From a bacterium (GTDB taxonomy: Bacteria; Patescibacteriota; Minisyncoccia; Phycocordibacterales; CAIZLB01), in assembly GCA_031411135.1 (NCBI GenBank), contig JANOAN010000003.1:10614-74613 (forward strand): DNA of 64,000 bases, read 5' to 3'. Shown here piece after piece: positions 7,403-57,846 of the stretch (within the stretch, counting starts at the first letter, position 1; every line of letters begins with the position of its first letter). The notes beneath the pieces were generated by a model that saw only the letters and a list, made by a program, of their open reading frames with translations, was not told the DNA's origin and did not search any database. Both the position numbers and the translations under genes were made by a program.

Positions 7403-7453
7403 AAGTTGTCCTTTCTTTTTTAAATGTGCTGTTCCGGAGTCATCTTCATATTT

Positions 7454-7481
7454 TTGACAAAAAGAGTCAATACTGTATAAT
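7454..7481 (+). promoter_or_regulatory. sigma70-like promoter (TTGACA-16-TATAAT) for the TrmB-like regulator gene
   Basis: TTGACA at 7454-7459 and TATAAT at 7476-7481, about 15 nt before the ATG at 7497. Confidence 0.5.
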
Positions 7482-7496
7482 AACCATTATACAAAT

Positions 7497-8264
7497 ATGC
7501 AAGAGCCCCGAAAACATCTTATGAGTCTTGGTTTAAGTGATTCTGAAGTCACCGTGTATTTAGCCATGGTGTCAGGGGCCAGAACTGCTAGAGATCTCGT
7601 AAAGGTTACTCGCCTAAAAAGACCAACAGTTTACTATGCACTGGGTTGTCTAGAAAAAAGAGGACTGACAAGCAAAACTGGCTTAGCGGGTGATAAAAGC
7701 TTTTCACTTGAACAAATTGAAAAACTATCTGTCATTGCTAAAGAAAAAGCATTGGAGTTTTCTAAACTTCAACAACGCATCGATGAGATGGTCCCTACCC
7801 TATCAGCTACATCATCTCCAGCTAATCAAAAACCAACAGTCGCTTTTTATGAGGGAGTAGACGCAGTGAAGAGCGCCGTCATGGATATGCTTTATTGTAA
7901 AAGTAAAAAAATTAGCTCTGTTGTGCCCAAGCAAAACTTTTTCTGGCAGGTAGGCCAAGATTTTGTTGAGCTTTATATTGAGGAGCGTGTTAAGCGAAGT
8001 ATTAAAACTAAGAATTTATGGGAAGCACCCATAAATAAGGGATTAATAAAACAATATTACGAGGGATTATCGCAAGTCAGAATATTACCTGAAGTAATGC
8101 ATGATAAATTTCAAACAACAACCTTTATGTATGACGACAAGACTCTCTATGTATCCTCAAAAAATAACAGCTACTGTGTACTTATAAAATCTAAGGAGCA
8201 CACGGATACGATGCGGGCATGGTTTGATGGGCTTTGGGGTGCATCGAAGCCGCATGATAGGTAG
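7497..8264 (+). CDS. TrmB-family transcriptional regulator
   Basis: N-terminal winged HTH 'LGLSDSEVTVYLAMVSGARTARDLVKVTRLKRPTVYYALGCLEKRGL', followed by a TrmB-like C-terminal domain. Confidence 0.65.
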   Translation: MQEPRKHLMSLGLSDSEVTVYLAMVSGARTARDLVKVTRLKRPTVYYALGCLEKRGLTSKTGLAGDKSFSLEQIEKLSVIAKEKALEFSKLQQRIDEMVPTLSATSSPANQKPTVAFYEGVDAVKSAVMDMLYCKSKKISSVVPKQNFFWQVGQDFVELYIEERVKRSIKTKNLWEAPINKGLIKQYYEGLSQVRILPEVMHDKFQTTTFMYDDKTLYVSSKNNSYCVLIKSKEHTDTMRAWFDGLWGASKPHDR

Positions 8265-35688: not shown

Positions 35689-35775
35689 GGAGGAGTGGCA
35701 GAGTGGTCGATCGCAACAGTCTTGAAAACTGTAGTCCTCGCAAGGGGACCGTGAGTTCGAATCTCACCTCCTCCG
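35689..35775 (+). tRNA. tRNA-Ser (anticodon TGA), long variable arm
   Basis: GGAGGAG acceptor, anticodon loop CTTGAAA, variable arm GTCCTCGCAAGGGGAC, T-arm GTGAG-TTCGAAT-CTCAC, discriminator G. Confidence 0.8.
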
Positions 35776-35808
35776 CACGCAAAAAACAGCTCAGAATATG
35801 GGCTGTTT

Positions 35809-35839
35809 TTTGTTTATCCAGGTGAGATTCGAACTTTTG
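35809..35839 (+). repeat. cassette boundary motif copy 1 (tttgtttatccaGGTGAGATTCGAACTTTTG)
   Basis: Direct comparison with 37289..37319 and 38634..38664. Confidence 0.6.
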
Positions 35840-35944
35840 GTGTTGACTTATTGCATTTTAGTGATATAAATGTGAAGAATTTTCAAGTACTTTAAAATCA
35901 GTGCTTGGGCTTGGAAGAAAGACTGTAATTGACTTGCTGGCAAT

Positions 35945-37138
35945 ATGCCAAGCGGATTATTGACTTTCACTCCAAACCCAACTCACTACAAAATGAAAAC
36001 AAATCATGCGGAGCCGATCGATCGGCTTATCCGTTCCTACGAAGCAACGATGCAGTTCATCACATTTATGATGTGGCTCTGGAGAAGAGGAGATACTGAC
36101 GGGAGGTTCACAGATCCTTTTTGGCAGAGAATCTTCAATGGGCCTGTGAAGAACTGGAAGGATCTTCGTAAAGCCCTCCTTCGAATTCACAGCGACGGCT
36201 TTGATAACGAAAAGTTTGCAGGTCCTTCAATCACGGAACATGCTCTTAGTCAGAAAGAATTTGAATTCGGACAGTCTCGGATGATTGCTTCTCGTGTCGC
36301 CGAATGGACAAGGTCATCACGTCGTGTTTACTTTGTCCCAACCGACCTCCAACTCTTGCTTTCGACGACGAGTCTCAAAGATGTAGATTGGTCAATGATC
36401 AATTGGCCGTTTGATTCATTTCTGATTTCCTTCGAAATTCCAGTCAAACATCGAGGCAAGCAGATCGACTCGGTGTTGGTATCAAAGGAGCGGGTGGGAG
36501 AACATAAGATTATGGTGATTGAAACAATTGCCACTGATCTCCCGACCATCGAGTCGGTATTCGTCGGAAACCAAATCCAACGAATTGAAACGGCTCTGAG
36601 GAAGGAAGATTTCGAATACGCATCCGAAAAACTTGGAGGTGCGTATACAAATCGGCTCGCCATTGGCGGTGGAGACATCTGGCTTGCAAGCGAAAAGACG
36701 TTCAAACCTGGCGGACTAGCAGAAAAATTCGAGAACTTAGGGGAAGATCCTGAGTCAAAAATTATCTTCCGATTAATGTTCGGGCTACTTCTATACCTAC
36801 AGTCTCGCCCTCACAAGGAGCTTGCACCAAAAGGATGGGAGCCTTCAGCATTCGAACGGTGCGAAGGTCCAGCAAAAGTCATACGCATCGAGTCAGAAGT
36901 GTGCATCGTAAAAAGCATCTACAAGCTGACTGACACTGAACGGTCTGTGTTAGGACCTGCACTCCGCGGTGGATACGTTGAGGTGTCCCCTCACCACCGT
37001 GAGGGACACTGGCGTCGCCCACCGGGTAAAGGTGATGATCCAAATCACCCAAAGACAGTCTGGGTCAGACCTACAATAGTCAGAGGAGATAAGCTTGTCG
37101 ATGGAACACTACCAGTCGGGAGCTCTGAAGTAGTGTAA
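35945..37138 (+). CDS. hypothetical protein (GC-rich cassette gene, 397 aa)
   Basis: Long ORF; TTGACT-17-TATAAA promoter at 35844..35873. No recognisable domain. Confidence 0.5.
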   Translation: MPSGLLTFTPNPTHYKMKTNHAEPIDRLIRSYEATMQFITFMMWLWRRGDTDGRFTDPFWQRIFNGPVKNWKDLRKALLRIHSDGFDNEKFAGPSITEHALSQKEFEFGQSRMIASRVAEWTRSSRRVYFVPTDLQLLLSTTSLKDVDWSMINWPFDSFLISFEIPVKHRGKQIDSVLVSKERVGEHKIMVIETIATDLPTIESVFVGNQIQRIETALRKEDFEYASEKLGGAYTNRLAIGGGDIWLASEKTFKPGGLAEKFENLGEDPESKIIFRLMFGLLLYLQSRPHKELAPKGWEPSAFERCEGPAKVIRIESEVCIVKSIYKLTDTERSVLGPALRGGYVEVSPHHREGHWRRPPGKGDDPNHPKTVWVRPTIVRGDKLVDGTLPVGSSEVV

Positions 37139-37232
37139 ATGATGGTAATCCCATTCGGTGCCAGTAACGTGTAACTGGCATACCCACCTTTCTCGAGCGT
37201 TGTCTCGGGGGGTGGTTTTTATTTTACATACC

Positions 37233-37319
37233 AAGTTCGAACAGCCTCCACGGTCCTCCGCACGCAAAAACCGCCCGAAAGGGCGGTTTGTTTTATCACA
37301 AGTGAGATTCGAACTTTTG
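37233..37319 (+). repeat. cassette boundary unit 2: partial tRNA-Ser 3'-end copy + hairpin terminator + conserved motif
   Basis: 'TTCGAACagcCTCCacggtCCTCCGCACGCAAAAA' resembles the tRNA T-arm/acceptor end, followed by 'ccgcccgaaagggcgg' and 'tttgttttatcacaAGTGAGATTCGAACTTTTG'. Confidence 0.6.
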
Positions 37320-37422
37320 CGTAAATTATTGAACCACTACGGTAGTCTTTACTTTTAATAATTAAGTGGTAGTTTTAGATTGAACCCAGCACGCAAAACA
37401 ATAAAAACGGAGGTAACCAAAA

Positions 37423-37785
37423 ATGCAAAATTATGCACTCAGGTCTTTATGGAGACCATTAACGCCAGCACAACGAGGAATGATCCTCATGGCATATGAT
37501 CAATCGACACATGCTGACGTGTGGGAAGCGCTCAAGAGTGAAGAAGACCACCAAAGGGTCACTCTACTTTCACGAACAGTAGTCGAGGCTCACGTAGATC
37601 TGGCGCAAAATGATGACCCTGAACTCATGGTAGGAACCTCACTTGTGTCATCCAACTTTGCGGTGAGTTTCGTTCGCTGGTTTCGCGAATTGAAAGCCTG
37701 GAAAGAGTTAAGGTGGGATGACCCTCATCTGTTCCACACGCTTCTATCTCACGCCTGTGTCGCAAAAAAACTCGAAACGGTGTAA
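37423..37785 (+). CDS. hypothetical protein (cassette gene, 120 aa)
   Basis: ORF followed by a terminator of the conserved family (37833..37866). Confidence 0.45.
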   Translation: MQNYALRSLWRPLTPAQRGMILMAYDQSTHADVWEALKSEEDHQRVTLLSRTVVEAHVDLAQNDDPELMVGTSLVSSNFAVSFVRWFRELKAWKELRWDDPHLFHTLLSHACVAKKLETV

Positions 37786-37832
37786 CCGCACGATCAAAAA
37801 TATGGCTACGGCCTTCCCCGCACTGGACTGTG

Positions 37833-37866
37833 CCACCGCTCTGACAAAGCGGTGTTTTCTTTTTTA
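37833..37866 (+). terminator. intrinsic terminator, conserved family
   Basis: 'ccaccgctcTGACAaagcggtg'+TTTTCTTTTTT; loop motif TGACA shared with 5593..5641 and 9254..9306. Confidence 0.55.
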
Positions 37867-37927
37867 TAAAAAGTTCTAACAACCCCCACGGTACTCCGCA
37901 CATTCGAACATTTTATCTACAAAAAAT

Positions 37928-38608
37928 CTATTTTAAGCGCTTCTTATTTGGATTCAAAAAATTTTCCCTAGTCGCCACCCTTTTCCCTGTTTTTCTTTCA
38001 ATTTCCTTGCGGGCATTGCCTGAAACTCTACCGCCGTCCTTTGCATCTTTCTGAAGTAATGGAAATCCTTTAGAGTCTCTACTCCGAGAAAGCTCTGTTG
38101 TTGTTGCTTCTCCTAACATTGTGAGTATAAGTTCAAGCTCATTCATATGGTCTCGTGCATTATCCTGCTTTGAGATTTTTTTATAATCTTTTATTTCTTG
38201 AGCGGTCATTTCAAAAGTTCCTTTATATATTTCGTTTGTGAGAATTGCGAACTCAATACCTTCCTTCGCTTCTCTGTTTTTCCATTCATCAGTAAGAGTG
38301 TTGCGAACATTAATACCTCGAATTCTTTTAGCAATCCAATCTTCGTTGTGTCCTTTTTGCTCGTAAGTTTTCTTTGCTCGTAAAACAGCTCGTTCAGGGT
38401 CTTGTATTTCTTCTATTCGTTCCTGACCTACTTTTGCCAACCACAACTTAAATGGTTCTGCTTTCGATGAAGGAATGGCTTGTATGATACGAAAGATACC
38501 TGCCAAATTGGCACAATTTACCTTCTGAACCCATCCTTTCGTCTCTATTCCAAGGGGGGTGGCAATTTGCCCCCACCCTTTTGATAACTCCTCATCCCTT
38601 CTACGCAT
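37928..38608 (-). CDS. dinD: DinD / Bro-N family protein (DNA-damage-inducible protein D-like)
   Basis: 'FKLWLAKVGQERIEEI' plus a C-terminal 'FAILTNEIYKG...ELILTMLGEATTTELSRSRDS' that aligns to E. coli DinD. Confidence 0.65.
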   Translation of the reverse strand: MRRRDEELSKGWGQIATPLGIETKGWVQKVNCANLAGIFRIIQAIPSSKAEPFKLWLAKVGQERIEEIQDPERAVLRAKKTYEQKGHNEDWIAKRIRGINVRNTLTDEWKNREAKEGIEFAILTNEIYKGTFEMTAQEIKDYKKISKQDNARDHMNELELILTMLGEATTTELSRSRDSKGFPLLQKDAKDGGRVSGNARKEIERKTGKRVATRENFLNPNKKRLK

Positions 38609-38661
38609 ATCCTTGATATACCCTTCGAGCTGTTTTTGTTTATCCAGATGAGATTAGAACT

Positions 38662-39297
38662 TTGATATACTTAAATGGTATGGAGCATCTCCCATTAGAC
38701 ATAAAAAATTTCGGCTTTGTTCAAAGAGAAATCTGTAATGGTATTACTGTTAAATACAAATGTGGAAGAGATTTTCTTTATTATGCTCTACATTTTCTTT
38801 TACCTTCAAAATTCAATCCTGAAACTAACAATCCGCAAGAAATAGATAGAAATCACTTTTTTGGACTTACTGTTCCTGTATGGCTCGCTTGGACACAGCT
38901 GTAATTTTACAAAATGCCAACATTCTTAAAGAGGCTCTCTTTGGAATTAAAGATAAATGATGTGATAGTTACTAACTTTTTGAAATTTGTTTATGCAATG
39001 CTTTTCTCAAGAATATCTTATGAAAATGCCCTGGAAAGAATTGAAGGTAATGTGAAAAATGGATTGGTATCAGGTGTGGATTTGGCCTTACGATGGCAAG
39101 GGTTGGAAGACCACGTGCTTTTTGTGTATGGGTATGATGTAGATAATCTCTATGTGTTTGATACTAATAAAATTTCAAGACTTGAATATGAAAAGCTTAC
39201 TGATGATGAGCGATACTACATGAAACTACCAAAATCAGTAGTTAAAAACAGGTGGAAGACATTTAGTCGGGTGTGGGAAGTGTATAAAGTGAACTAA
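38662..39297 (+). pseudogene. hypothetical gene interrupted by an in-frame TAA (80 aa + 127 aa ORFs in the same frame)
   Basis: ORFs 38662..38904 and 38914..39297 share a frame, separated only by TAA at 38905-38907 plus 2 codons. Confidence 0.4.
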
Positions 39298-47882: not shown

Positions 47883-48644
47883 ATGGTGTACTCGGCAAAG
47901 ATCTTTGATCTGGTCAATTGTCAGAGTAATTTCACAAACCACCAACAAGAAAGGATTATTCATATGCTAAGTAATGTCAGACACGAAAGCAAAGTAAATA
48001 CCAACGGAAGAAGTGCAGTGTGTGGTTACGCAAAAGCTGAAGAAAGGAACCATCCTGTAGCCGTAGTAATATTCATAATCATACTGGCAGCACTTACTGC
48101 CGAGTTCGTGATTATCCCTTGGAAGAACAGGACGAAGACGGCAGAAGTGACTTCGGTTCAAGTTTTACCGCTCACCTACATTGAGGAAGCACGTGTAGAG
48201 AAAACCCTCCTCGCCCTCAAAGCGTGGACGGAATCGAGCGAATCCAGAAGTAAAGTCATGGACGAGACCATTCGTCAAATGACTGACGCAGTAACGTCGG
48301 AAATCTACTGGCACCAGACGAATGAAAAGGAACGCAAGGTGCTACGAGAGGTTATCGAGGGCAAGGAGAGGAAGAATATTCCCATTCCCTCTGGACTGCA
48401 AGAAAGTCTGGCAAAGTTGGGAGACTTCGAAGCTTCGATTCCCCACCTGTGGAACAAGGACTTCAACCTCCCTTCCACACTGTCGCGACTTGAGGCGGAT
48501 AAAATCAAGACAGCCGCTGGCAAGACTGTTTATGAGAAGTTCAAGAGGTGGAGAGCAGATGAAGAAGATGTAACGAGGTACGTCCTCGGTATCGTCCCGT
48601 CTCGAGCGACCCCATTGCCCCCGCAGATCAAGAAAAAGCGCTAA
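47883..48644 (+). CDS. hypothetical protein (GC-rich), one TM
   Basis: ORF with an upstream TTGACA-like promoter at 47850 and a downstream hairpin terminator. Confidence 0.45.
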   Translation: MVYSAKIFDLVNCQSNFTNHQQERIIHMLSNVRHESKVNTNGRSAVCGYAKAEERNHPVAVVIFIIILAALTAEFVIIPWKNRTKTAEVTSVQVLPLTYIEEARVEKTLLALKAWTESSESRSKVMDETIRQMTDAVTSEIYWHQTNEKERKVLREVIEGKERKNIPIPSGLQESLAKLGDFEASIPHLWNKDFNLPSTLSRLEADKIKTAAGKTVYEKFKRWRADEEDVTRYVLGIVPSRATPLPPQIKKKR

Positions 48645-48723: not shown

Positions 48724-48798
48724 GCTCTCGTCGTTCAATGGATAGGACGTAACTTTGCGGAAGTTATGATACAGGTTCGATTCCTGTCGAGAGCACCA
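48724..48798 (+). tRNA. tRNA-Arg (anticodon reads GCG), encoded CCA
   Basis: GCTCTCG acceptor, D-arm GTTCAATGGATAGGAC, anticodon stem TAACT/AGTTA with loop TTGCGGA, T-arm ACAGG-TTCGATT-CCTGT, CGAGAGC-A-CCA. Confidence 0.7.
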
Positions 48799-48870
48799 CT
48801 AAGGCCGATGCGGAGGCCTCATATTTCTCAACGTTTTTTCGTTGTTGAAATTGAGCACCCCGCTTGGAAT

Positions 48871-50268
48871 CTAACTTTTAGGAAGGATACCTTCTTTTTG
48901 CTGTTTTTGATTGGGCTGACTTACAGGAGGTGTGTCTTTCAACAGCTCATCTGATTCAGTCTTATCAACAGATATCTTTCCATCTTTCAAAATCAATTTG
49001 CTTTTCAGGTTTACTAAAACATGACGTTGTTCGTAAATGTTGCCATCTTTCAGGAGAAACTTCATATATTTTTTGATATCAATATCTCCTAATTCCTTAC
49101 TCTCAAATCCACCTGGATCACCGATGACATCTCTGTGAAAACGATACATTCGATTTACATCCATATCCATCTGTCCTCGTACGCCGAGTTCGTTAATGGA
49201 TAATTCATCAACTATCTCACAGAGTGATTTTATGAGATCCTCCTCACGGATATATGTCATAGGACAATGATGATCTTTTGTCCTTGAACAACCATAATAG
49301 ACGTATCTCATAATAGTTCCGTCTTTCAAAGCTTTAAACTTTTCTTCAGCAGTAACACTTGAACCACAGAGTCCGCATTTAATTAAATGTGTGTAAGCAA
49401 AATCTTTTTTGTAAATCCGTGTCGCTCGTTTTTTCTTCTTCATTTCTTCTCGCACTTTATCAAAAAGTTCCTTTGTGATGAGTGGTTTATGTACACCATG
49501 GTACCAATTACCGCTTTTCTTAGGGTACTCAAACATGCCGTAATAAAAAGTTCTAGTGAGAGCTAGTTGTACACCACTTAATGCAATATGTTTTCCGTTT
49601 GGTGATCTAAAGTCTAGTTCATCAGTAAGCCAATCTCGTATACGATGTTGACTCCAACCCTCGGACGCTTTTTCAAACATCATTTGGACTATGTGTGCTC
49701 GAACTGGATCTATCTTCACAATACCTCGATTACCTTTCTCTCCAACATTCGTGTATCCCAAAGGTGCAACCCCTGGCCACAACCCTTTTTCTACAAGAGT
49801 TCTCAAACCTCTTTTTACATTTATACCTTTAGTATCATTTTCAAGTTTTGCTTGTGATCCAAGAATCATGAGTAGAAATTTCTCGTTAGGTGAGTTAGAA
49901 AAGTTTTGATTATATGTCCTGATTTCTAAAAGTTGCTTACTATCCATAAGATCAATCAGTCTACCTAGATCACCTGCATTTCGGCTAAGTCTATCTGGAT
50001 GCCACGTAAGGATTGCATTGTATTTTCCAGCCTTTATCTCGTCGATCATTTTATTAAAAACTTCACGCTCACCAGAATTTTTAGCTGAGTGGGCTTCAGT
50101 TTTTACTGTCACTACTGAAAGATGATCTCGTTCGGCAAGTTTATTCATCTCACTTATCTGAGATTCAATTGACAAAGCTTGTCGTTCTTCGTCCTCGCTA
50201 GATTTTCTGGCGTAGAGGCAGTAGATGAGGGCTGGAGATGGCACTTCTTTTACAGCAGAGTTTTCCAT
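48871..50268 (-). CDS. large serine recombinase (resolvase/invertase N-terminal catalytic domain + recombinase domain + zinc ribbon)
   Basis: 'LYARKSSEDEERQALSIESQ' catalytic Ser region, 'PLGYTN', and a 'CGLCGS...YYGCS...HHCP' Zn ribbon. Confidence 0.85.
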   Translation of the reverse strand: MENSAVKEVPSPALIYCLYARKSSEDEERQALSIESQISEMNKLAERDHLSVVTVKTEAHSAKNSGEREVFNKMIDEIKAGKYNAILTWHPDRLSRNAGDLGRLIDLMDSKQLLEIRTYNQNFSNSPNEKFLLMILGSQAKLENDTKGINVKRGLRTLVEKGLWPGVAPLGYTNVGEKGNRGIVKIDPVRAHIVQMMFEKASEGWSQHRIRDWLTDELDFRSPNGKHIALSGVQLALTRTFYYGMFEYPKKSGNWYHGVHKPLITKELFDKVREEMKKKKRATRIYKKDFAYTHLIKCGLCGSSVTAEEKFKALKDGTIMRYVYYGCSRTKDHHCPMTYIREEDLIKSLCEIVDELSINELGVRGQMDMDVNRMYRFHRDVIGDPGGFESKELGDIDIKKYMKFLLKDGNIYEQRHVLVNLKSKLILKDGKISVDKTESDELLKDTPPVSQPNQKQQKEGILPKS

Positions 50269-50309
50269 AACTCATATTTTAATAAAAATACAGATGGAAA
50301 TCTAGATAT

Positions 50310-51629
50310 TTATTCCATCATCAGCTTCTTATCCTTCAGCAATATTCTACTCTTAATACAACTTAGCACTTCTCGCTTCTGCAACATCGTCCCGTGCTGA
50401 AGCATATGCTTTGCAAATGTTTTGATTGATACGTCTTTGTGCTTCTTCGATTGCCCTAGATCCACCCCAAGCACTCCAGTCTGGAAAAGTGCATATCGTG
50501 CCACTTCTTCTTGAAGCTTCTGCTTCAGTTCTGATTTATCCATGCTCATCTTGTCTATTATCGGTAACATCTCTGATATCAATATATCCTCTTTCACTGA
50601 CTCGTTCGGACAGTCTCGATCCTTCAATTTGGTGCACCTGTAGTAGACATGAGCGTTGAAACCACCATCCTTCAATTCCTTGATCTTCTCCTCTGCTGTT
50701 ATGCCCGATTCGCAGTAGGCACAGTGGAGCATTCTGGTGAAGGCAAACTCTCTGCCGTAGGCTTTTTTCTTCTCAACCCTGATTTTGTCCTGCACCAGAT
50801 CGAAAAGTTCCTTGGTGATGATCGGTGTATGCTTGCCTGTATACCAGTCACCGCTTCCAACAGGATATTCAAACACTCCGTAGTAGAAGGTCAGCCTTAA
50901 TATTCGGTAGATATTACCTAATGTCATCGGCTTGTTGCCTCTTGTTACAAATTTCACATCTTTGAGCCACCTATATATCTTCCTACCAGAGTAGTTTTCA
51001 GTGGCTACTTTTTCAAATATTTCTTTTATGAGTGGTGCTCTTACGGGATCAACTTCCACCTGACACTTTTTATCCACATTTTTGCTGTTTAGGTATCCAG
51101 TTGGTGCTGTGCATGGCCAGAGTCCCATCTGGCATCTTGCCCTTAGGCCTCGCTTCACATTTACCACCTTATTGTCGTTCTCAAGCTTTGCCTGTGATCC
51201 TAGAATCATGAGCATAAATTTCTCATTCGGCGTGTTGCTGAACTTTTGTCCATAGGTGCGTATCTCATGAAGCTTCTTCTGATCCATCAAGTCTACGATT
51301 CTTCCAAGATCACCTGCGTTTCGTGCAATTCTATCAGGTGCCCACGTCAGTATTCCATTGAACTTACCCTGATTGATCTCATTCACGATTTCGTTGAACA
51401 CTGGTCGTTGCCCCGCTTCCTTGGCAGAATGCGACTCTTGTTTTCTTGCCACAATCTCTAATCCCTCATTAATCGCCATCTTCTCCATTTCCCGTATCTG
51501 GCTATCAATGGAGAGTACCTGCTTATCCTCCTGTTCTGTACTTTTCCTTGCGTAAAGCACGTATTTAACCCTTACAGGGATTGATATTTTGGCCTCCATC
51601 CCCACTGGCCTTTGTATTGTATGATCCAT
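50310..51629 (-). CDS. large serine recombinase, paralog of 48871..50268
   Basis: 'LYARKSTEQEDKQVLSIDSQ', 'PTGYLN', and 'CAYCESGITAEEK...YYRCTKLKDRDCP'; ~45% identical to the neighbouring recombinase. Confidence 0.85.
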   Translation of the reverse strand: MDHTIQRPVGMEAKISIPVRVKYVLYARKSTEQEDKQVLSIDSQIREMEKMAINEGLEIVARKQESHSAKEAGQRPVFNEIVNEINQGKFNGILTWAPDRIARNAGDLGRIVDLMDQKKLHEIRTYGQKFSNTPNEKFMLMILGSQAKLENDNKVVNVKRGLRARCQMGLWPCTAPTGYLNSKNVDKKCQVEVDPVRAPLIKEIFEKVATENYSGRKIYRWLKDVKFVTRGNKPMTLGNIYRILRLTFYYGVFEYPVGSGDWYTGKHTPIITKELFDLVQDKIRVEKKKAYGREFAFTRMLHCAYCESGITAEEKIKELKDGGFNAHVYYRCTKLKDRDCPNESVKEDILISEMLPIIDKMSMDKSELKQKLQEEVARYALFQTGVLGVDLGQSKKHKDVSIKTFAKHMLQHGTMLQKREVLSCIKSRILLKDKKLMME

Positions 51630-51634
51630 ACCTA

Positions 51635-51684
51635 CATTGATGACAGAGACCCTCCGAGGAGTCTAGGAGGGGTCAGTTGGTAAC
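51635..51684 (+). repeat. 50-bp direct repeat copy A (duplicate of the KAP gene RBS/start region)
   Basis: 'cattgatgacagagaccctccgaggagtctaggaggggtcagttggtaac' versus 52084..52133, about 80% identical. Confidence 0.6.
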
Positions 51685-52022
51685 TAATTTCGCTCAATCT
51701 CTGATTTTTTGCTCAATCCTTTCTCTTTAAAAAACCCGTCTATCATTTTTACGTTACCTTTCGCTCCAACGTGCCAGATGTTAACTTCGTTAACTGGAAT
51801 GATTTCTTTGTAATCGTAAATTGTTACCACTGTAGGCTTTTTATGTTTTGTTTTGAAAGACCATTCGACACGCACCTTTCCATCGCTAGATTTCCACCTT
51901 TCATCAGTAACTCTGTCGTTGGGTTTACCTAGACAACTGACAAGATGCTCGTATGAAGAAATGGTATATCCACTGAAACTTGAGCCGTTTATATCCTTTG
52001 GTTCTGCTTTGATGAATTTCAT
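51684..52022 (-). CDS. hypothetical protein (112 aa) flanked by direct repeats
   Basis: ORF bracketed by the two 50-bp repeats. Confidence 0.45.
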   Translation of the reverse strand: MKFIKAEPKDINGSSFSGYTISSYEHLVSCLGKPNDRVTDERWKSSDGKVRVEWSFKTKHKKPTVVTIYDYKEIIPVNEVNIWHVGAKGNVKMIDGFFKEKGLSKKSEIERN

Positions 52023-52083
52023 ATGTTTTTTGCTTGTTAATTCGGCCTACGTCAGAGTCACTTGTAGCGGGTTTTCACAAACA

Positions 52084-52133
52084 CATTGATGACGCAGACC
52101 ACTTAGGAAGTCTAGGAGGGGTGAGTTGGTAAT
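52084..52133 (+). repeat. 50-bp direct repeat copy B, containing the AGGAGG RBS and TTG start of the KAP NTPase gene
   Basis: 'cattgatgacgcagaccacttaggaagtctaggaggggtgagttggtaat'. Confidence 0.6.
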
Positions 52134-54897
52134 TTTTAGCCTTAAAAACTTAGTAAATAGGCAATTTTTATGGTATAATGTTGTCATCATGTCAGAAGAC
52201 GAGCAAGATAAAATCAGCAAATGGGACACGCCTTCCAAGAAGGACATGTTCGGCCGTGAGCCGTTTGTAGATACGATAGTAAAAACAATCCAATCGTCTC
52301 AAGAAGGCTTTAACTTGGGTGTCTCTGCTCGATGGGGAGAAGGTAAATCATCAATCTTAGAACAGCTCCAGCCAAAACTAGAAGAGTTGAATTACAAAGT
52401 CTTAACTTTTTCTCCTTGGAAATATACACAGGACAATATATCAATTAAAAGAAAGTTTATAATCGATATCTACTCCCAACTTGGAGAGGATTATGATGAT
52501 ACTGAACTATACAGTTCAACAGAAAGTCAGAAAGAACTAAAAATTGATGCTTACGATAGTATATTTTTTAATAGACTCGGAATTTTTATTCGCTACGGCC
52601 TAACGGTATCTATTTTATTTTTGGCAGTTCTTTTTATTATAAAGTATTGGTTTGGATTTACAATAAATATTACACAGACTTTTTCCACCAATTTATTTAT
52701 TCCTATACTTGCAGCACTTTTACCCATTGTCACAAAAATTACAGAAGTGACGGTAAAACATACAACCCCAAAAATAGAATCTGCCGAGCAATTTGAAAAA
52801 AGATTTAATGACGTTATAAACGGAATAATGGGCACCCATAAATCGCCGGGGAAAATAATCATTTTTGTCGATGATCTTGATCGATGCAATCATGTTGAAG
52901 TTGAACAGATACTTACAGCTTTATTTACATTTTTCAACAATAAGCATTGTACTTATGTGATTACAGCTGATCACACTGTTATTCGAAGATATATAAGTAG
53001 TTTCTTAAAGCTAGAAAACGATCTTAAAGATGATGGAACGGTAGATATGAAAAAGACAGAAGAGACTAGACAAAAAGAGGCGACGGAATATTTAAAAAAG
53101 ATTTTTCAGATTAACTTTATTGTTCCAAGGATACCTAGTGATCTACTTGAACCTTGGATAAGTGACCTACTGAAGGCCAGTCCTGTTATTGAGTTCAAGA
53201 ACCATTACGCAAAAGATTATTTAGTAAACCTCATACTTAATAATTTTCAGGGCAATCCCAGAAAGATAAAGCACTTTATTCGAACTTTAGCATTCCAATT
53301 AGAAGCAATTAATGAAAAAATCCAATGTCTTGCGGATCAAAAGGTAGATGAGAGTAAAAACCTCAACAAGGTTAAGGATTCTCCAGAGCTTTTAGCAAAA
53401 ATACTCATTCTCCAAGATAGGTTCCCTAACTTTTACGAGAAGATCGTATTAGAGCCAAAGCTTTTACAAAGACGTGAAGCTGGCGAGATGGATGAAGACA
53501 AAGAATTACAGAACCTTCTTGCTCAAGAGCCAAAATTCTTTAATTCGCTGACTCGTAATTCTACTCTGAAGACTATCGACCCTTATTACTTCCTGTACTT
53601 CTCAGGATCGACTGGCTTCGTGGAAACTGCTGTAGTCGACCCAGCGGAGGTCAAGGCTCTTGCAAGAAGTGCAGACTTTGACGGACTCACAAAAATAATT
53701 CGAGGTTTGACCGATGAGCCGAGAAACATGCAAGTTGAACATATAAAGCTTGAATTTGATTCTCCACAAATACAACCACCTGAAAAAGTAAATATTGTAA
53801 GAAGTCTTTTCCATACAGTTACTTTAATAGAAGAACCCAGCCTCAGACTCCAAAAGCTTAAAGAAATTCTTGATAATAAGACAAAGTACAAGCTTGAATT
53901 TGCATCCTTGCAGTCGGTTGATTTTGGAAACTTTATAACTTTTGCAGATATTGATGTAATAAACAAACTTTTTGTAGGTACTCCTTTCACAGATATTGCA
54001 ATGCAGACTCAAATTCTTAGTGCATTTATAAGCAAGCAAGATGAAATAAAAAATGTTGATGTTCTAAAAAAGTTTATTCAAGTTATTGCCACTGGCATTT
54101 CTAAGAACGATGCCAATTCTCAATCTTATCTAATATTGGCAAAAAAGATAAGTGATAAAAACTTTCTTGATGCAGATACGCTTCAGAATAGTTTGATTGA
54201 AACATATAAAAAGGCTCCCGATCCTTTAAAACAGGAACTTTTTGATACATTGCTTGATATTAAACCAAAGTTATCTGCACCAAAGCAACAGGAATTTGAA
54301 GAGATAATTCTAGCTGTTATTGAAAAAGACCCTATCGCCGAAAGTCTTGCGATGATTGGCAATATTCCTGTGAAGATTAATAAATCTAAATTAAGTATGT
54401 CGAAAGTCACTTCAGTAGTGAACAAAAGAATTTCTAGTTCAACAGATGTTGAAATTGCTCAGCTTGCAAATATTATGCTTCATCAAGCTATAAAAGATGA
54501 GCTTGGTCCAGATAATACAGAGCTAACACTCATTACTCTGGTCGAATTACTTGATTCTAAGGATCAACCAACGATAGCACTCATAAGAGGACGCCTTCCT
54601 GAATTCATAACTCATTCGACTAATAAGTCAAAGTTGCTAGATCAAGTATTGAAATCTGTAGAAACTGGCCCCCTTACGGAAAGTGCTCAAACGATGGATA
54701 CCTTGAAGAGCATGGATGATTTCTGGAACACCAATCCTTTTTTAAAAAAGGAACTTGTATCTAAATTGAAAGCTTCTTTGAAATGGATCGTGGATAAGGA
54801 TATAAAAAGTTTAGTAACAAAAAGTTTGGGAGAACTCGATCCTCCTCCTGAGCCCAAGAAGAAAAAAGAGTCCACTGAGCCTGCACCAGATAAATAA
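52126..54897 (+). CDS. KAP-family P-loop NTPase
   Basis: Walker A 'GEGKSS', two TM helices inserted before Walker B 'IIIFVDDLDRC' (the KAP hallmark); 923 aa. TTG start with AGGAGG 6 nt upstream. Confidence 0.75.
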   Translation: MVIFSLKNLVNRQFLWYNVVIMSEDEQDKISKWDTPSKKDMFGREPFVDTIVKTIQSSQEGFNLGVSARWGEGKSSILEQLQPKLEELNYKVLTFSPWKYTQDNISIKRKFIIDIYSQLGEDYDDTELYSSTESQKELKIDAYDSIFFNRLGIFIRYGLTVSILFLAVLFIIKYWFGFTINITQTFSTNLFIPILAALLPIVTKITEVTVKHTTPKIESAEQFEKRFNDVINGIMGTHKSPGKIIIFVDDLDRCNHVEVEQILTALFTFFNNKHCTYVITADHTVIRRYISSFLKLENDLKDDGTVDMKKTEETRQKEATEYLKKIFQINFIVPRIPSDLLEPWISDLLKASPVIEFKNHYAKDYLVNLILNNFQGNPRKIKHFIRTLAFQLEAINEKIQCLADQKVDESKNLNKVKDSPELLAKILILQDRFPNFYEKIVLEPKLLQRREAGEMDEDKELQNLLAQEPKFFNSLTRNSTLKTIDPYYFLYFSGSTGFVETAVVDPAEVKALARSADFDGLTKIIRGLTDEPRNMQVEHIKLEFDSPQIQPPEKVNIVRSLFHTVTLIEEPSLRLQKLKEILDNKTKYKLEFASLQSVDFGNFITFADIDVINKLFVGTPFTDIAMQTQILSAFISKQDEIKNVDVLKKFIQVIATGISKNDANSQSYLILAKKISDKNFLDADTLQNSLIETYKKAPDPLKQELFDTLLDIKPKLSAPKQQEFEEIILAVIEKDPIAESLAMIGNIPVKINKSKLSMSKVTSVVNKRISSSTDVEIAQLANIMLHQAIKDELGPDNTELTLITLVELLDSKDQPTIALIRGRLPEFITHSTNKSKLLDQVLKSVETGPLTESAQTMDTLKSMDDFWNTNPFLKKELVSKLKASLKWIVDKDIKSLVTKSLGELDPPPEPKKKKESTEPAPDK

Positions 54898-54956
54898 TCA
54901 AATGTTGGCAACCCATGCTTCGCAAGTCTATATTTTTAAGCTAAGATTCTTCTAAC

Positions 54957-55778
54957 ATGGCAAAGAAAATTTTGACTAACATAAAACAAAAACCTCACTT
55001 CTCTCACAGGGATTTTGTTCTGTATCTTGGCAATTCAACCGATATCCTCAATGAGCTTCCAGAAAATTCCATAGATATGATTTTTGCAGATCCTCCATAC
55101 ATGCTTTCAAACGGAGGATTCACTGTTCATGCAGGAAAGATGGTAAGTGTTGATAAAGGAGACTGGGACAAAAGCAAAGGATTTGATAGCGACTACTCAT
55201 TTCATAGAAAATGGCTAGAGGCCTGCTATCGAGTCCTCAAACCCCAAGGAACCATTTGGGTTAGTGGAACATATCATTCAATCTATCAATGTGGTCACGC
55301 TATTCAGTCTATCGGTTTTCATATTCTCAATGATATAAGTTGGTTCAAGCCGAACGCTTCGCCGAATTTAAGCTGTAGGTTTTTTACAGCCAGTCACGAG
55401 ACATTGCTCTGGGCTAGGAAACATAAAAAAGCAAAGCACACGTTCAATTATGAATTGATGAAAGGTGGAGAATGGTCTGAAGATTTTATTAAAAAACCAA
55501 ATCTACAGATGCGTTCTGTATGGGCAATTAATCCACCCAAAAAAGAAGAGAAAAAATTTACCAAGCATCCGACACAAAAACCACTTTCACTTCTAGAGAG
55601 GATTGTTCTCGCAAGTACAAACAAAGGAGATATAATCCTTGATCCTTTTACCGGTAGTTCCACAACAGGAATCGCTGCTAAAAAACACGGACGAAAGTTT
55701 ATCGGTATTGATACTGAGGAGAAATACTTAGCTCTTTCTCAAAAACGCTTTCAAGATTTAGTCGAGGCTGGTAATTGA
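54957..55778 (+). CDS. DNA N6-adenine methyltransferase, beta class (DPPY before FxGxG), M.DpnIIB/DpnA-like
   Basis: 'IFADPPYM' at aa ~43 and 'ILDPFTGSSTTG' near the C-terminus; 273 aa. Confidence 0.8.
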   Translation: MAKKILTNIKQKPHFSHRDFVLYLGNSTDILNELPENSIDMIFADPPYMLSNGGFTVHAGKMVSVDKGDWDKSKGFDSDYSFHRKWLEACYRVLKPQGTIWVSGTYHSIYQCGHAIQSIGFHILNDISWFKPNASPNLSCRFFTASHETLLWARKHKKAKHTFNYELMKGGEWSEDFIKKPNLQMRSVWAINPPKKEEKKFTKHPTQKPLSLLERIVLASTNKGDIILDPFTGSSTTGIAAKKHGRKFIGIDTEEKYLALSQKRFQDLVEAGN

Positions 55779-56616
55779 CTATTACTACTTCGGATATCTT
55801 TCCTCTCTTGTCAGATTTTGAATTAATCATTCGGCTAGCATATACAGGAATCTGCTTATAGCCAGAATATATTTCCTTAATGAATGGTGCACTAGAATTA
55901 CTAAGCATTACATATACGCCCTTTTTATCTAGCTCGATAAATAAATCTCTAAGCTTTATTTGATCATCCTTAGAGAAACTATCTTTACTATAACTTGTAA
56001 ATGATGATGTCTCTGATAAAGGATGGTACGGGGGGTCGAAGTATACAAAGTCTCCAGCCTTAGCATTTTTCACAGCATCAGCAAAGGATCCACTAGTAAT
56101 TTTTGTATGAGAAAGCATCTCAGATACAAGTTTTAGGTTTTCTTCGTCCACAATCTTTGGATTCGTATAGCTTCCCATAGGAACATTAAATCCACCCTTT
56201 GAGTTTTCTCTATAGACACCATTGAAGGCTGTCTTGTTTAGAAAAAGAAAGTATAGACTCTTTTTGAAATCGTCAGCAGGGAGTGAATTATACTTTTCTC
56301 TGATTGAGTAATAAAACTCTTTTCTTTCTTCTGTATTTTTTGATATAAAATCTTTCTCAATTTTTCTTAAAGACTTAATCAATTCGCCAACATTATCTTT
56401 GATGTTTTTATAGGTTTGAACTAGAGTCTTGTTCACATCGTTTATGTGAGCCTTCTTTGGATTCAATGCAAAGAATACCGCACCTCCACCGATAAACGGT
56501 TCAAAATACGAATTGTACTTTTGGGGAAAGAGAGCATCTAACTGTGTCAAAAGCTGGGTCTTACCCCCAACCCATTTAAGGAACGGCTTAGCTTTCTTAG
56601 AAATATCTATCTTCAT
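55699..56616 (-). CDS. Dam-family DNA adenine methyltransferase (alpha class), M.DpnIIA/DpnM-like, probable GATC specificity
   Basis: 'LKWVGGKTQL', 'FEPFIGGGAVFF' and 'FVYFDPPYHP'. Confidence 0.8.
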   Translation of the reverse strand: MKIDISKKAKPFLKWVGGKTQLLTQLDALFPQKYNSYFEPFIGGGAVFFALNPKKAHINDVNKTLVQTYKNIKDNVGELIKSLRKIEKDFISKNTEERKEFYYSIREKYNSLPADDFKKSLYFLFLNKTAFNGVYRENSKGGFNVPMGSYTNPKIVDEENLKLVSEMLSHTKITSGSFADAVKNAKAGDFVYFDPPYHPLSETSSFTSYSKDSFSKDDQIKLRDLFIELDKKGVYVMLSNSSAPFIKEIYSGYKQIPVYASRMINSKSDKRGKISEVVIVNYQPRLNLESVFEKELSISPQYQYR

Positions 56617-56696
56617 GTATTGATTTTATCATTTTTTGATACCGATTCCTATCTTTCATTGTTCTAAGCCCTATTTTGTGATTTAATTGCATTATT

Positions 56697-57230
56697 ATGA
56701 AAGTCGGAGGTATCGGAGGAACAAACACAAAGTCGGGGCTACACTTTGAAGGAAAGGTGGATTTTCTCGAGGCCCTCAAAATAGTAAAGGGCTATGAAAT
56801 AAAGGATGACGGGTCTATCCTTTTCGAAGGTAAGGTTGTAGCTCTCAATCTCCGAAAATACAAGCTCTACGAATTTCTAGAAAGTAAAGGTGTTAATCAC
56901 AAAGAAATACTTTCAAAACGTCTTCTCCCTGATGATGCTATCTTGGTACTCAACACGAATTCATTTTACGTAATTGAAATTAAATTCCAACAGGTTGCTG
57001 GTTCTGTGGACGAAAAATTGCAGACATGCCATTTCAAAAAGAGACAGTACGAAAAATTGATGAATTCACTCGGTGTAAAAGTGGAATATATCTACATCTT
57101 AAGTGACTGGTTCCAAGCTCCTGCGTACAAGGATGTTCTCGCTTACATTAAAGAGGTTGATTGCGATTATTTCTTCGAAGAAATAACTCTAAACCGTCTC
57201 GGGCTCCCATCTCCAACAGAGACTATCTAA
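56697..57230 (+). CDS. putative PD-(D/E)xK restriction endonuclease (short; DpnII/MboI-like catalytic core)
   Basis: 'DDAILVLNTNSFYVIEIKFQQVAGSVDEKL' resembles the R.DpnII 'DFVIKNEQVLYLIEVNFYSGSGSKLNE' core. Only 177 aa, so it lacks the DpnII N-terminal domain. Confidence 0.4.
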   Translation: MKVGGIGGTNTKSGLHFEGKVDFLEALKIVKGYEIKDDGSILFEGKVVALNLRKYKLYEFLESKGVNHKEILSKRLLPDDAILVLNTNSFYVIEIKFQQVAGSVDEKLQTCHFKKRQYEKLMNSLGVKVEYIYILSDWFQAPAYKDVLAYIKEVDCDYFFEEITLNRLGLPSPTETI

Positions 57231-57846
57231 ATCCTGGCATTGCTGATTGAAGTACTTCTGTATAGTGTTTCTTGTCGTCGATATAATCTCTAAGCGTAAG
57301 TAGTAGGTTTTTAAACATATAAGCCTCGGTATAAATCTTTTCATTCTTGCAGAAAAGTTCAATCATTATCGCAACGTAATCTAAAGACAGGGTGTAATCC
57401 TGCTCAATGTGTGCATACTTTTGTGTAATCTCATCAACGGTTTCAAGTTTATAGTTATTCCTATCTTCAACCGATGCGAAAGGCGTAGTTCTCTCATAAA
57501 AATCAATGTAGTACTGAACTATCTCTCGAACGTCTTTGCGATACTGAGGGATTTTCAGAAGAAGATCGACAACCCAAAATGTATGAGTCGGCGGTGTCAT
57601 TATTTTGTTCACTCCTGGCACGAGAATTTTTACTACGAAATCAATATCTGGTCTTGCACCTCTACTTCCTTGAAATAGACCAATCAAAGTTCCGTCTTTT
57701 GTGACATATGTCTTAAAAGCAGTTAGACGAGGTCTCAGTTGAGCGAGATTAGTTCCATCATAATATCTAGAGTTGTATTCGTGTGACATTACAGAAAGTA
57801 TAGCAAAAGCTAGGCTGTTGGTAACTAGAGCTTCGCAACCCTCCAT
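57223..57846 (-). CDS. hypothetical protein (207 aa)
   Basis: ORF convergent with the nuclease gene (8-nt overlap). Confidence 0.45.
   Translation of the reverse strand: MEGCEALVTNSLAFAILSVMSHEYNSRYYDGTNLAQLRPRLTAFKTYVTKDGTLIGLFQGSRGARPDIDFVVKILVPGVNKIMTPPTHTFWVVDLLLKIPQYRKDVREIVQYYIDFYERTTPFASVEDRNNYKLETVDEITQKYAHIEQDYTLSLDYVAIMIELFCKNEKIYTEAYMFKNLLLTLRDYIDDKKHYTEVLQSAMPGFR

Follow-up and report, generated by a model that had tools for sequence, protein, structure and literature searches.

A tandem array of single-gene units behind tRNA-Ser(UGA) in a Patescibacteria genome, probably accreted by large serine recombinase-type elements

The DNA analyzed here, hereafter the window, is a 64,000-nucleotide (nt) stretch of a genome from the Patescibacteriota (Minisyncoccia; Phycocordibacterales; CAIZLB01; GenBank assembly GCA_031411135.1, contig JANOAN010000003.1, positions 10,614 to 74,613 of the forward strand) in which a tRNA-Ser(UGA) gene is followed, between 35.7 and 38.7 kb, by an array of short genes separated by reiterated sequence units. 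The GC content of the window is 39.8% and its genes include ruvX, a gene encoding a tRNA-binding protein and pilM/N/O-like genes; ruvX is the gene upstream of tRNA-Ser and lies on the opposite strand. A Patescibacteria origin is suggested by this gene content together with the names that homologues bear. An earlier note on this DNA had placed tRNA-Ser(TGA) at the head of the array, and ARAGORN calls tRNA-Ser(tga) at 35689-35776 on the plus strand with an Rfam tRNA score of 55.5 bits. The gene is intact, lies directly upstream of the array and does not encode CCA. The stretch from the T-loop to the 3' end, AGTTCGAATCTCACCTCCTCCGC (35754-35776), is 23 nt long, as in every real tRNA-Ser compared. 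Loci for comparison across genomes, given here by L numbers, were fetched with PilM, with a metagenome scan for the tRNA 3' end, and with homologues of three proteins described below, ORF120, the AcrVA2-like protein and the large serine recombinase (LSR).

Four units, U1 to U4, were located on the plus strand, each at the position that the earlier note had given. U1 spans 35754-35839 when the tRNA 3' stretch is included; past the tRNA (35777-35839) it continues with ACG, a hairpin at 35780-35812, TTTGTTTATCC, an inverted T-arm copy and TTTTG. The inverted copy, AGGTGAGATTCGAACT at 35820-35835, matches the T-arm of tRNA-Ser perfectly (16/16). U2 (37233-37319) has a left part composed of AAGTTCGAAC AGCCTCCACGG TCCTCCGC at 37233-37261, or 28 nt counted from A37234, and a right part composed of ACG, a GC-rich hairpin at 37271-37286 that differs from the hairpin of U1, TTTGTTTTATC and GTGAGATTCGAACTTTTG (37302-37319); the order may also be described as AAGTTCGAAC-AGCCTCCACGG-TCCTCCGCACGCAAAAA followed by the hairpin. 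U3 (37870-37914) consists of a U2-like arm, AAAGTTCTAAC AACCCCCACGG TACTCCGC (28 nt from A37872), then AC and ATTCGAACATTTT, a stub containing 12 nt of the distal motif. U4 (38622-38661, or 38613-38670 with the flanking 9-mers) comprises the 3' half of a U1-type hairpin and TTTGTTTATCCAGATGAGATTAGAACTTTG, which is 94% identical to the U1 motif, and is bracketed by the previously noticed 9-bp direct repeat, TTGATATAC, at 38613-38621 and 38662-38670. The tripartite structure of arm, hairpin and motif that had been ascribed to every unit holds for U1 and U2, whereas U3 has no hairpin and U4 only half a hairpin and the motif. The left copy of TTGATATAC is coding sequence of the adjacent dinD gene (codons Y-I-K). 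The possibility that U4 is a mini-transposon with a 9-bp target duplication was rejected, the sequence past the right-hand copy not being dinD.

The repeats are real and far beyond chance expectation. The 18-mer GTGAGATTCGAACTTTTG has two exact occurrences, with 0.08 matches expected even when 3 mismatches are allowed, and the 17-mer TCCTCCGCACGCAAAAA was also found twice. The heptamer TTCGAAC occurs nine times on the plus strand of the 64 kb and five of these lie within this 3 kb (binomial P = 2e-5), while GTTCKAAC is present in the whole window only in U2 and U3. Alignment of the units with tRNA-Ser, a check put forward with the earlier note, succeeded for the left arm of U2, for which the alignment to the tRNA 3' end was better than those of all 2000 shuffles, but the arm of U3 and that of L040, taken singly, gave no significant alignment to the tRNA. 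The kinship of these two arms to the tRNA is visible only when several genomes are compared. Folded as single-stranded DNA, U1 was very stable (dG -27.5 kcal/mol, z -9.2) and U2 weaker to moderate; no fold was obtained for U3 or U4. The array and L039 were scanned with Rfam (E<=1), and only the tRNA exceeded the gathering score. Pattern scans of IMG/VR returned 17 hits for the displaced arm (CCACGGTMCTCCGCAC), all unrelated as judged by flanking sequence, the sole low-GC hit opened (L028) lying inside a long open reading frame (ORF), and 0 hits for the motif TATCCAGRTGAGATTMGAAC.

The region between U1 and U2 (35840-37232, plus strand, GC 0.47) contains a promoter-like sequence (TTGACT-16-TATAAA) at 35843-35870, an ORF of 381 aa at 35993-37138 that has a longer 397-aa reading from 35945, and a terminator at 37189-37212 followed by a T run. 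In precomputed annotation the family PF26125 (AcrVA2-like) is assigned to an identical protein, P0001, and to 38 of 40 homologues. No match was obtained in the local Pfam copy for the 381-aa ORF or for P0002, P0014 and P0029, and the PF26125 model is probably absent from that copy; the ORF also had no match in PDB, phage records, plasmid records or NCBIfam. An HxRxxH motif (HHREGH) is found at residues 334-339 of 381 as a pattern match only, made with no alignment to AcrVA2. Its spacing is the same as that of H286, R288 and H291 in the C-terminal part of AcrVA2, which are required for activity (bioRxiv 10.1101/2022.11.29.518452). The cargo of the first cassette is, by these features, like an anti-CRISPR gene of the AcrVA2 type. 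Homologues lie directly downstream of tRNA genes in four other contexts (L001/L002, L003/L004, L019 at tRNA-Ala and L021 at tRNA-Ser(gga)).

The second cargo region (37320-37869, plus strand, GC 0.45) holds an ORF at 37423-37785, ORF120, with its own terminator at 37834-37854. ORF120 belongs to no known family, and only three clusters of homologues were found, each at the same type of locus. Cargo and cassettes have a GC content of 0.45-0.48 versus 0.37-0.39 in the flanks. To the right of U3 is a dinD/Bro-N-type gene on the minus strand (37928-38622) that lacks the first ~50 codons, with the Pfam Bro-N match starting at profile position 55 and the phrog_15286 match at position 73, and its homology ends exactly at U4. 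Since the gene has a host-like GC content (0.40) and a full-length orthologue at the same locus in L009 (83% nt identity), it is a truncated resident gene and not cargo. The three GC-rich cargo ORFs described in the earlier note are reduced to two, those for the AcrVA2-like protein and ORF120 (both GC 0.48), dinD having been miscounted as a cassette. As had been stated, the array (35.7-38.7 kb) contains no integrase; it was found to contain no recombinase and no replication gene.

Comparison with related loci, also suggested with the earlier note, revealed presence/absence variation in the same slot. The locus in L040 (~89% nt identity) has tRNA-Ser, U1 (95.6% identical), the ORF120 cassette, an arm, the dinD terminator and dinD, and is without 1,480 bp holding the AcrVA2-like gene and most of U2. 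An ORF120 cassette (75% aa identity) is also present in L039, where its left end (GATGAGATTCGAACTTTTG) and right end (AAAGTTCGAAC...) match those in the window but its neighbours differ; the cassette retains both ends in three genomes with differing neighbours. In L009, the PilM of which is 82% identical, the same tRNA-Ser is followed by a gene for a 542-aa LSR with Resolvase, Recombinase and Zn-ribbon domains that reads towards the tRNA and overlaps the tRNA-Ser 3' end with its last codons, then by genes for a tyrosine recombinase and an HTH_17 protein, small genes, a permease, a methyltransferase and dinD. All variants retrieved by the metagenome scan with the tRNA 3' end diverge right after ...CCTCCGCACG. 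In three of them (L011, L013 and L018) the tRNA is followed by another terminator and by unrelated genes, and in L012 a 118-nt insert separates the tRNA from a direct repeat of its end. An independent Logan contig (L005) is 100% identical to the window over 2,834 bp. Contigs of three related species stop at the locus, those of L006 and L008 at or inside tRNA-Ser and that of L007 106 nt past it, breaks that are consistent with population heterogeneity or repeats.

A search with the LSR of L009 gave 2332 homologues at E<=1e-40, among which several are named as Paceibacterota or Minisyncoccia proteins. A complete-element module in the order HTH_17, tyrosine recombinase, HTH_17 and LSR is found at L041 (tRNA-Ser cga), L043 and L044/L046 (tRNA-Ser tga), where the LSR stop codon falls within the tRNA 3' end. 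No recognizable replication module was detected among the genes scanned in these complete relatives. Sequence conservation among the complete elements starts immediately after ...CCGCA while the acceptor strands vary with the host tRNA, from which a junction at the very 3' end of the tRNA may be deduced. When the LSR tails of L009, L041, L043 and L044 were aligned with U1, U2 and their counterparts in L040 and L039, a single collinear order emerged, CCTCCGCA, hairpin, TTTGTTTATC, spacer and GAGRTTCKAAC. This collinearity suggests that the hairpin and what the earlier note had called a 30-bp motif are the LSR-proximal (P') end of an element that has lost its LSR gene.

Arm length was counted from RGTTCKAAC to the terminal CCGC. 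It is 23 nt in all seven genuine tRNA-Ser genes (the window, L040, L039, L009, L043 and L044, plus L041 by inspection) and 28 nt in all five displaced arms, which come from four genomes (U2 and U3 of the window, L040, L039 and L009). In the displaced arm of L009 the intervening 12 nt are unrelated and the length is still 28 nt. In serine integrases the zinc-ribbon-domain motif of attP is 5 bp more distant from the crossover than that of attB (PMC3783163). Read by this rule, the displaced fragments, which had been described as degenerate tRNA copies, fit attP half-sites (P arms) displaced by +5 relative to attB, and AGTTCGAATCTCACCTCCTCCGC of tRNA-Ser is the proposed left half-site of attB (B arm). 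The crossover would lie within TCCTCCGC, with the 9-nt motif at positions 11-19 of the tRNA arm and 16-24 of the displaced arm, as in the Listeria integrase model. Where a P arm meets native flank (L040 and L009) the sequence reads CCGC|CA followed by the dinD terminator, whereas resident tRNAs read CCGC|AC or |AT, and the native flank in both genomes contains ...TCCTCCGCCAACTGAGAATGG.... The former would derive from the ancestral tRNA gene, as its CCA end and terminator, and the latter from the element, a switch that places the exchange in the shared TCCTCCGC. A classical T-loop crossover, in which the fragment is the old tRNA 3' end, was set aside as the main model because the fragments form no functional tRNA end, have a constant +5 nt and are accompanied by host-specific acceptor strands. 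An inverted pseudo-tRNA as the reconstructed empty site was likewise set aside. The reverse complement of X+Y in the window reconstruction aligns to the T-arm region (0/2000 shuffles as good); this score comes mostly from the 16-nt inverted repeat, and the plus-strand reading is stronger given the 17/17 identity and the CCA end in L040 and L009.

The array is probably an accretion left by CcrB/DsiB-like LSR elements that target the 3' end of tRNA-Ser; the acting enzyme, the crossover position, the order of events and any present mobility are parts of this account that we infer. A complete element, as seen in relatives, has the recombination module at the tRNA-proximal end with the LSR gene reading towards the tRNA. 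Integration would proceed by crossover inside TCCTCCGC at the end of the acceptor stem between the 23-nt left half of attB (B), formed by the T-loop-to-3'-end stretch of the tRNA, and the far end of the element (P, 28 nt), in which the distal RGTTCKAAC is set 5 bp farther out. At the end near the LSR gene, P' would supply a hairpin to terminate the tRNA transcript after integration, then TTTGTTTATC, then GAGRTTCKAAC. The array may then be parsed as B|P' (U1, attL), the AcrVA2-like gene, P|P' (U2, attP-like), ORF120, P|relic stub (U3), truncated dinD and relic (U4). The left end ...TTCGAACTTTTG and the 28-nt right arm are common to both cargo genes, which are themselves unrelated. Elements 1 and 2 would be miniature derivatives that kept both att halves and carry a single cargo gene in place of the recombination module, each cargo with its own promoter-like sequence and terminator. 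They would have arrived by successive site-specific integrations and be movable in trans, in principle, by a cognate LSR; the cargo would fit conflict between elements and host defence or among elements. A P|P' junction is what would be expected were a second element to integrate into the attL or attR of the first, and CcrAB-type enzymes are able to integrate into attL/attR. Successive integration at the same tRNA attB had been raised in the earlier note and gains from the complete elements at this site (L009, L043 and L044, with L041 at tRNA-Ser(cga)) and from the missing first cassette in L040. Features by which LSR islands are recognized are present: an intact tRNA target, reiterated att sequence at U1-U4, an LSR gene beside attL in L009, L041, L043 and L044/L046, and presence or absence among relatives.

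The recombinases nearest to the array, placed at 48.8-51.6 kb in the earlier note, were identified as two tandem CcrB-like LSR genes on the minus strand (48871-51629, with genes at 48871-50268 and 50310-51629) beside tRNA-Arg(gcg) (48724-48798), 11 kb from the array. The pair are the only candidates in the window for recombinases acting on the array in trans. For all three LSRs, that of L009 and the two in the window, the best curated-family match is CcrB at 87-123 bits versus an equivalog cut-off of 900, and because the scores are far under this cut-off the three are not Ccr orthologues. The tail and stop codon of the first window LSR lie in GGAATCTAACTTTTAGG, which matches the T-loop region of tRNA-Arg in inverted orientation at 9 of 10 positions and is similar to the P' motif of the array. 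No tyrosine recombinase was found in the window by tblastn and phmmer with the L009 query, a single-query test that remote homologues could escape. The advice to seek a tyrosine integrase specific for tRNA-Ser probably pointed to the wrong family, since the enzyme involved would be an LSR, possibly with a tyrosine recombinase partner.

Several findings weigh against accretion by LSR elements. The difference between L040 and the window is bounded by the distal 18-bp GTGAGATTCGAACTTTTG and not by TCCTCCGC, that is, the breakpoint is in the distal motif and not at the inferred crossover, and the L040 unit is orthologous to U1 (95.6%) and not to U2; what took place there resembles homologous recombination, slippage from one unit to another or recourse to a second site. 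The length rule has effectively two independent lineages behind it, given the common ancestry of four of the five 28-nt arms, and searches within 10 kb yielded no P arm for L043 or L044. The expected relationship is seen in the left half-sites (B and P) only; a convincing mirror-image motif at the predicted distance was found in neither P' nor B'. The proximal P' of the window units is unlike the conserved GAGAYTTT...CACAAA of L009-type elements, and the model accounts for neither the perfect inverted T-arm copy nor the 9-bp direct repeat at U4. The LSRs of the window are at another tRNA and only 39-43% identical to the LSR at the tRNA-Ser site of L009, and no far-end P arm of the tRNA-Arg island was found within the window. 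Finally, the complete elements carry a tyrosine recombinase as well, and the putative assignment to the LSR draws only on gene position and site geometry.

That tyrosine recombinase could itself have integrated the elements at tRNA-Ser by crossover at a short core such as TTCGAAC, leaving cassettes bounded by direct repeats of the core. Every complete element has Phage_integrase and HTH_17 (Xis-like) genes beside the LSR gene, and in L009 a perfect 12-bp direct repeat, AGAGGTTCTAAC, has one copy in the LSR tail, 70 nt past the tRNA, and the other at the far boundary. The cassettes of the window, L040 and L039 have ...TTCGAAC|TTTTG as their left border and AAAG|TTCKAAC as their right border, ends that on circularization give a 12-14-bp palindrome, AAAGTTCGAACTTT. 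The indel between L040 and the window is bounded by a motif containing the core, and classical direct repeats from the T-loop to the 3' end occur at other tRNA loci (L012, L001 and L039). The core alone, however, leaves the constant 28-nt arm and the CCGC|CA versus CCGC|AC switch unexplained and gives no account of element conservation that starts exactly at the tRNA 3' end. TTCGAA is palindromic, so that direct and inverted repeats of it are easily over-read, and the failure to detect such an enzyme in the window, a weak point owing to the single query, also counts against this explanation, which we consider unlikely. A better case, although not the favoured one, can be made for inert debris, in which one or more large elements were shrunk by deletions, variation arose through homologous recombination or slippage, and the cassettes were never discrete mobile units. 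In its favour are the fragmentary, unfolded U3 and U4, the truncated dinD, the lack of recombinases in the array, the 18-bp perfect repeat that bounds the L040 indel as in a deletion by recombination or slippage, and the identity of L005, in which no heterogeneity was seen. Precise and repeated boundaries are nevertheless not expected from random decay: the two unrelated cargo genes have their left end and right arm in common, the ends of the ORF120 cassette are preserved among different neighbours, and AcrVA2-like genes recur as single-gene inserts beside different tRNAs, as in L021. Debris is possible but doubtful for these reasons.

The resemblance to an integron, also proposed in the earlier note, does not extend to mechanism. 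Were the units folded single-stranded sites of the attC type at which an integron-type integrase captures cassettes, one would expect single-gene cassettes each followed by a unit, as observed, with the outer inverted repeats AAGTTCGAA...TTCGAACTT around a variable hairpin and the very strong fold of U1 and moderate fold of U2. Integron arrays without an adjacent integrase are known. The window, however, contains no IntI and no detectable tyrosine recombinase, the units lack the attC boxes R'' RYYYAAC and R' GTTRRRY, U3 and U4 are unfolded, and the fold of U1 is accounted for by the tRNA T-arm and the terminator. Both cassettes have terminators of their own and the first also has TTGACT-16-TATAAA, and the units are collinear with the attL region of serine recombinase elements. 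An integron-type system is, on this evidence, very improbable. The likeness is functional only (one gene per unit, a recombination site at each junction, the enzyme encoded elsewhere), whereas the array differs in lacking IntI and attC boxes, in its double-stranded att half-site anatomy and in its own expression signals.

The closest precedent for accretion by LSR elements is the ssrA genomic islands of Dehalococcoides. These are tandem islands at the 3' end of the tmRNA gene with a ~540-aa CcrB-like LSR gene that sits beside attL and overlaps ssrA at its 3' end; insertion is in the T-loop/3' region and the C-terminus of the LSR varies through the overlap (PMC3146451). Fifteen islands without an integration module have been read as cis-mobilizable elements or fixed remnants (McMurdie et al. 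2011, PMC3146451). The two systems share tandem units immediately 3' of a stable-RNA gene, reiterated 3'-end copies at the boundaries, and a reverse-strand integration module next to attL with the LSR gene overlapping the RNA gene, seen here in the complete elements of relatives. They differ in target and host (tRNA-Ser in Patescibacteria versus tmRNA), in the partner of the LSR (a tyrosine recombinase and HTH_17 here, the small serine recombinase DsiA there), in the recombinase-less units (single genes of 0.6-1.5 kb here, multi-gene islands there) and in the displaced arms, which here have a constant +5-nt spacing and are not plain direct repeats. Composites of staphylococcal cassette chromosome (SCC) elements come next. 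The target of SCC elements is the 3' end of a conserved gene, where they form tandem stacks with repeated integration-site sequences in between, and ccr-less SCC elements occur in such arrays and are movable by CcrAB in trans. CcrB is the best curated match here, and the two tandem LSR genes at the tRNA-Arg island of the window resemble ccrA plus ccrB; the target is a tRNA gene in place of rlmH/orfX, the elements are far smaller and there is no resistance cargo.

Other tRNA-associated elements are more distant. Tycheposon-type islands of Prochlorococcus integrate at a few tRNA genes that include tRNA-Ser(TGA) (Hackl et al., bioRxiv 10.1101/2020.12.28.424599). Neighbouring islands are separated by a partial tRNA copy alone, which has been read as successive integrations that push older islands inwards; degenerate remnants and scattered partial tRNAs occur, and a minority use a large serine recombinase (bioRxiv 10.1101/2020.12.28.424599). 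Stacking at a tRNA with tRNA-like pieces between units is common to both, but tycheposons are defined by a tyrosine recombinase, a replication module (primase/helicase) and multi-kb cargo, none of which is present in the array, and their partial tRNAs are plain att repeats. Cis-mobilizable elements (CIMEs) are att-flanked DNA without recombination or transfer genes that forms beside, and moves with or by means of, a related autonomous element (PMC3146451, PMC5704250). In the array, functional-looking att sites likewise flank DNA without its own recombination or transfer genes, mobilization here being conjectural; CIMEs, which usually extend over many kb, have been defined in Firmicutes for integrative and conjugative or mobilizable elements whose integrases are of the tyrosine type.

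The locus is a very small example of a known mode of island building, the points of interest being the one-gene units devoid of recombinase and the anti-CRISPR-like cargo. To what the earlier note contained, the present analysis adds the proposed enzyme family, the interpretation of the displaced fragments as +5 attP half-sites and of the motif as the LSR-tail side of attP, the truncated resident dinD and the variant loci in relatives. Patescibacteria have small genomes and few described mobile elements. An abundant LSR family, that with 2332 homologues at E<=1e-40, would build variable regions at tRNA-Ser, including units of one gene, and would provide a concrete mechanism for strain-level variation in gene content and for the spread of anti-defence genes in this group. 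It would also explain why the contigs of three relatives break at or just after tRNA-Ser. Candidate attB, attP, attL and attP-like sites with a 5-bp half-site offset occur here as a natural collection that could be useful for genome engineering with serine integrases, and the locus cautions that annotated "degenerate tRNA fragments" can be half-sites of a recombinase and not decayed copies. A bolder and improbable extension is that the single-gene units are not debris but the working currency of an LSR-based gene-cassette system in Patescibacteria. Each cassette would keep a split attP consisting of the 28-nt P arm and the hairpin-bearing P' with its inverted T-arm copy, and cassettes would be excised, exchanged and stacked at tRNA 3' ends by LSRs that other parts of the genome or newly arriving elements encode. 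If true, the system would be a functional analogue of the integron with another enzyme and with tRNA attB sites, through which anti-defence genes such as the AcrVA2-like gene are traded among these small-genome bacteria.

Immediately to the right of U4, at 38662-39297, are ORFs of 80 aa and 127 aa in the same frame with a single TAA between them; the pair has no family match and may be a pseudogene or a read-through gene. At two other loci the AcrVA2-like gene was found in different surroundings. In L021 (6749-8260) a single AcrVA2-like gene lies between tRNA-Ser(gga) and a convergent gene, and the 3' flank of the insert, AAGTTTGAAT-GAAAT-CTCACC..., resembles an arm of the tRNA-Ser(tga) type with a 5-nt insertion, possibly a further case of a +5 P arm. 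In the Patescibacteria locus L003 (5728-9433), downstream of tRNA-Ala, a single-gene array that includes an AcrVA2-like gene has 98-nt repeats (96% identical) and partial copies between the genes. A weaker second repeat lies just 3' of three of the 98-nt copies, and only the reference copy (7453-7497) has a promoter of consensus type, TTGACA-17-TATAAT.

The second island of the window, at tRNA-Arg(gcg) (48724-57846), contains the two LSR genes, a 923-aa ORF, ORFs of 273 aa and 305 aa that have the look of DNA methyltransferases as judged by eye, and small ORFs. A 50-nt direct repeat (51634-51683 and 52083-52132, 80% identical) flanks a 112-aa ORF between the second LSR gene and the 923-aa gene and may be a further att-type or regulatory repeat. 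Upstream of the same tRNA, a 253-aa ORF (47883-48644) with a GC content of about 0.50 and no family match lies between the conserved gene for a 157-aa membrane protein and tRNA-Arg(gcg); since these two neighbours are adjacent in L039, the ORF looks like another single-gene insertion, in this instance upstream of a tRNA. Inverted copies of the T-arm or T-loop after the terminator are found at three tRNAs, tRNA-Ser (16/16, 35820-35835), tRNA-Arg (9/10, 48866-48875) and the tRNA-Ala of L019 (GAGAGGATTCGAACC, at about 6670-6685), and the change of the copy along with the tRNA suggests a function in recombination. In L001 (4567-4696), L002, L019 (about 6620-6791), L039 (7647-7802) and L012, a tRNA (Ala or Ser) is separated from a direct repeat of its own 3' end by a GC-rich mini-insert of ~110-190 nt. 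No Rfam match was obtained for the L039 copy, the only one scanned. The mini-inserts of L001/L002, L019 and L039 end in ...GTGAC|CGAATC..., those of L001 and L039 also share TAGATGAGAAAG, and that of L012 (118 nt) differs from the others; these tRNA-adjacent inserts may be miniature non-autonomous integrative elements.

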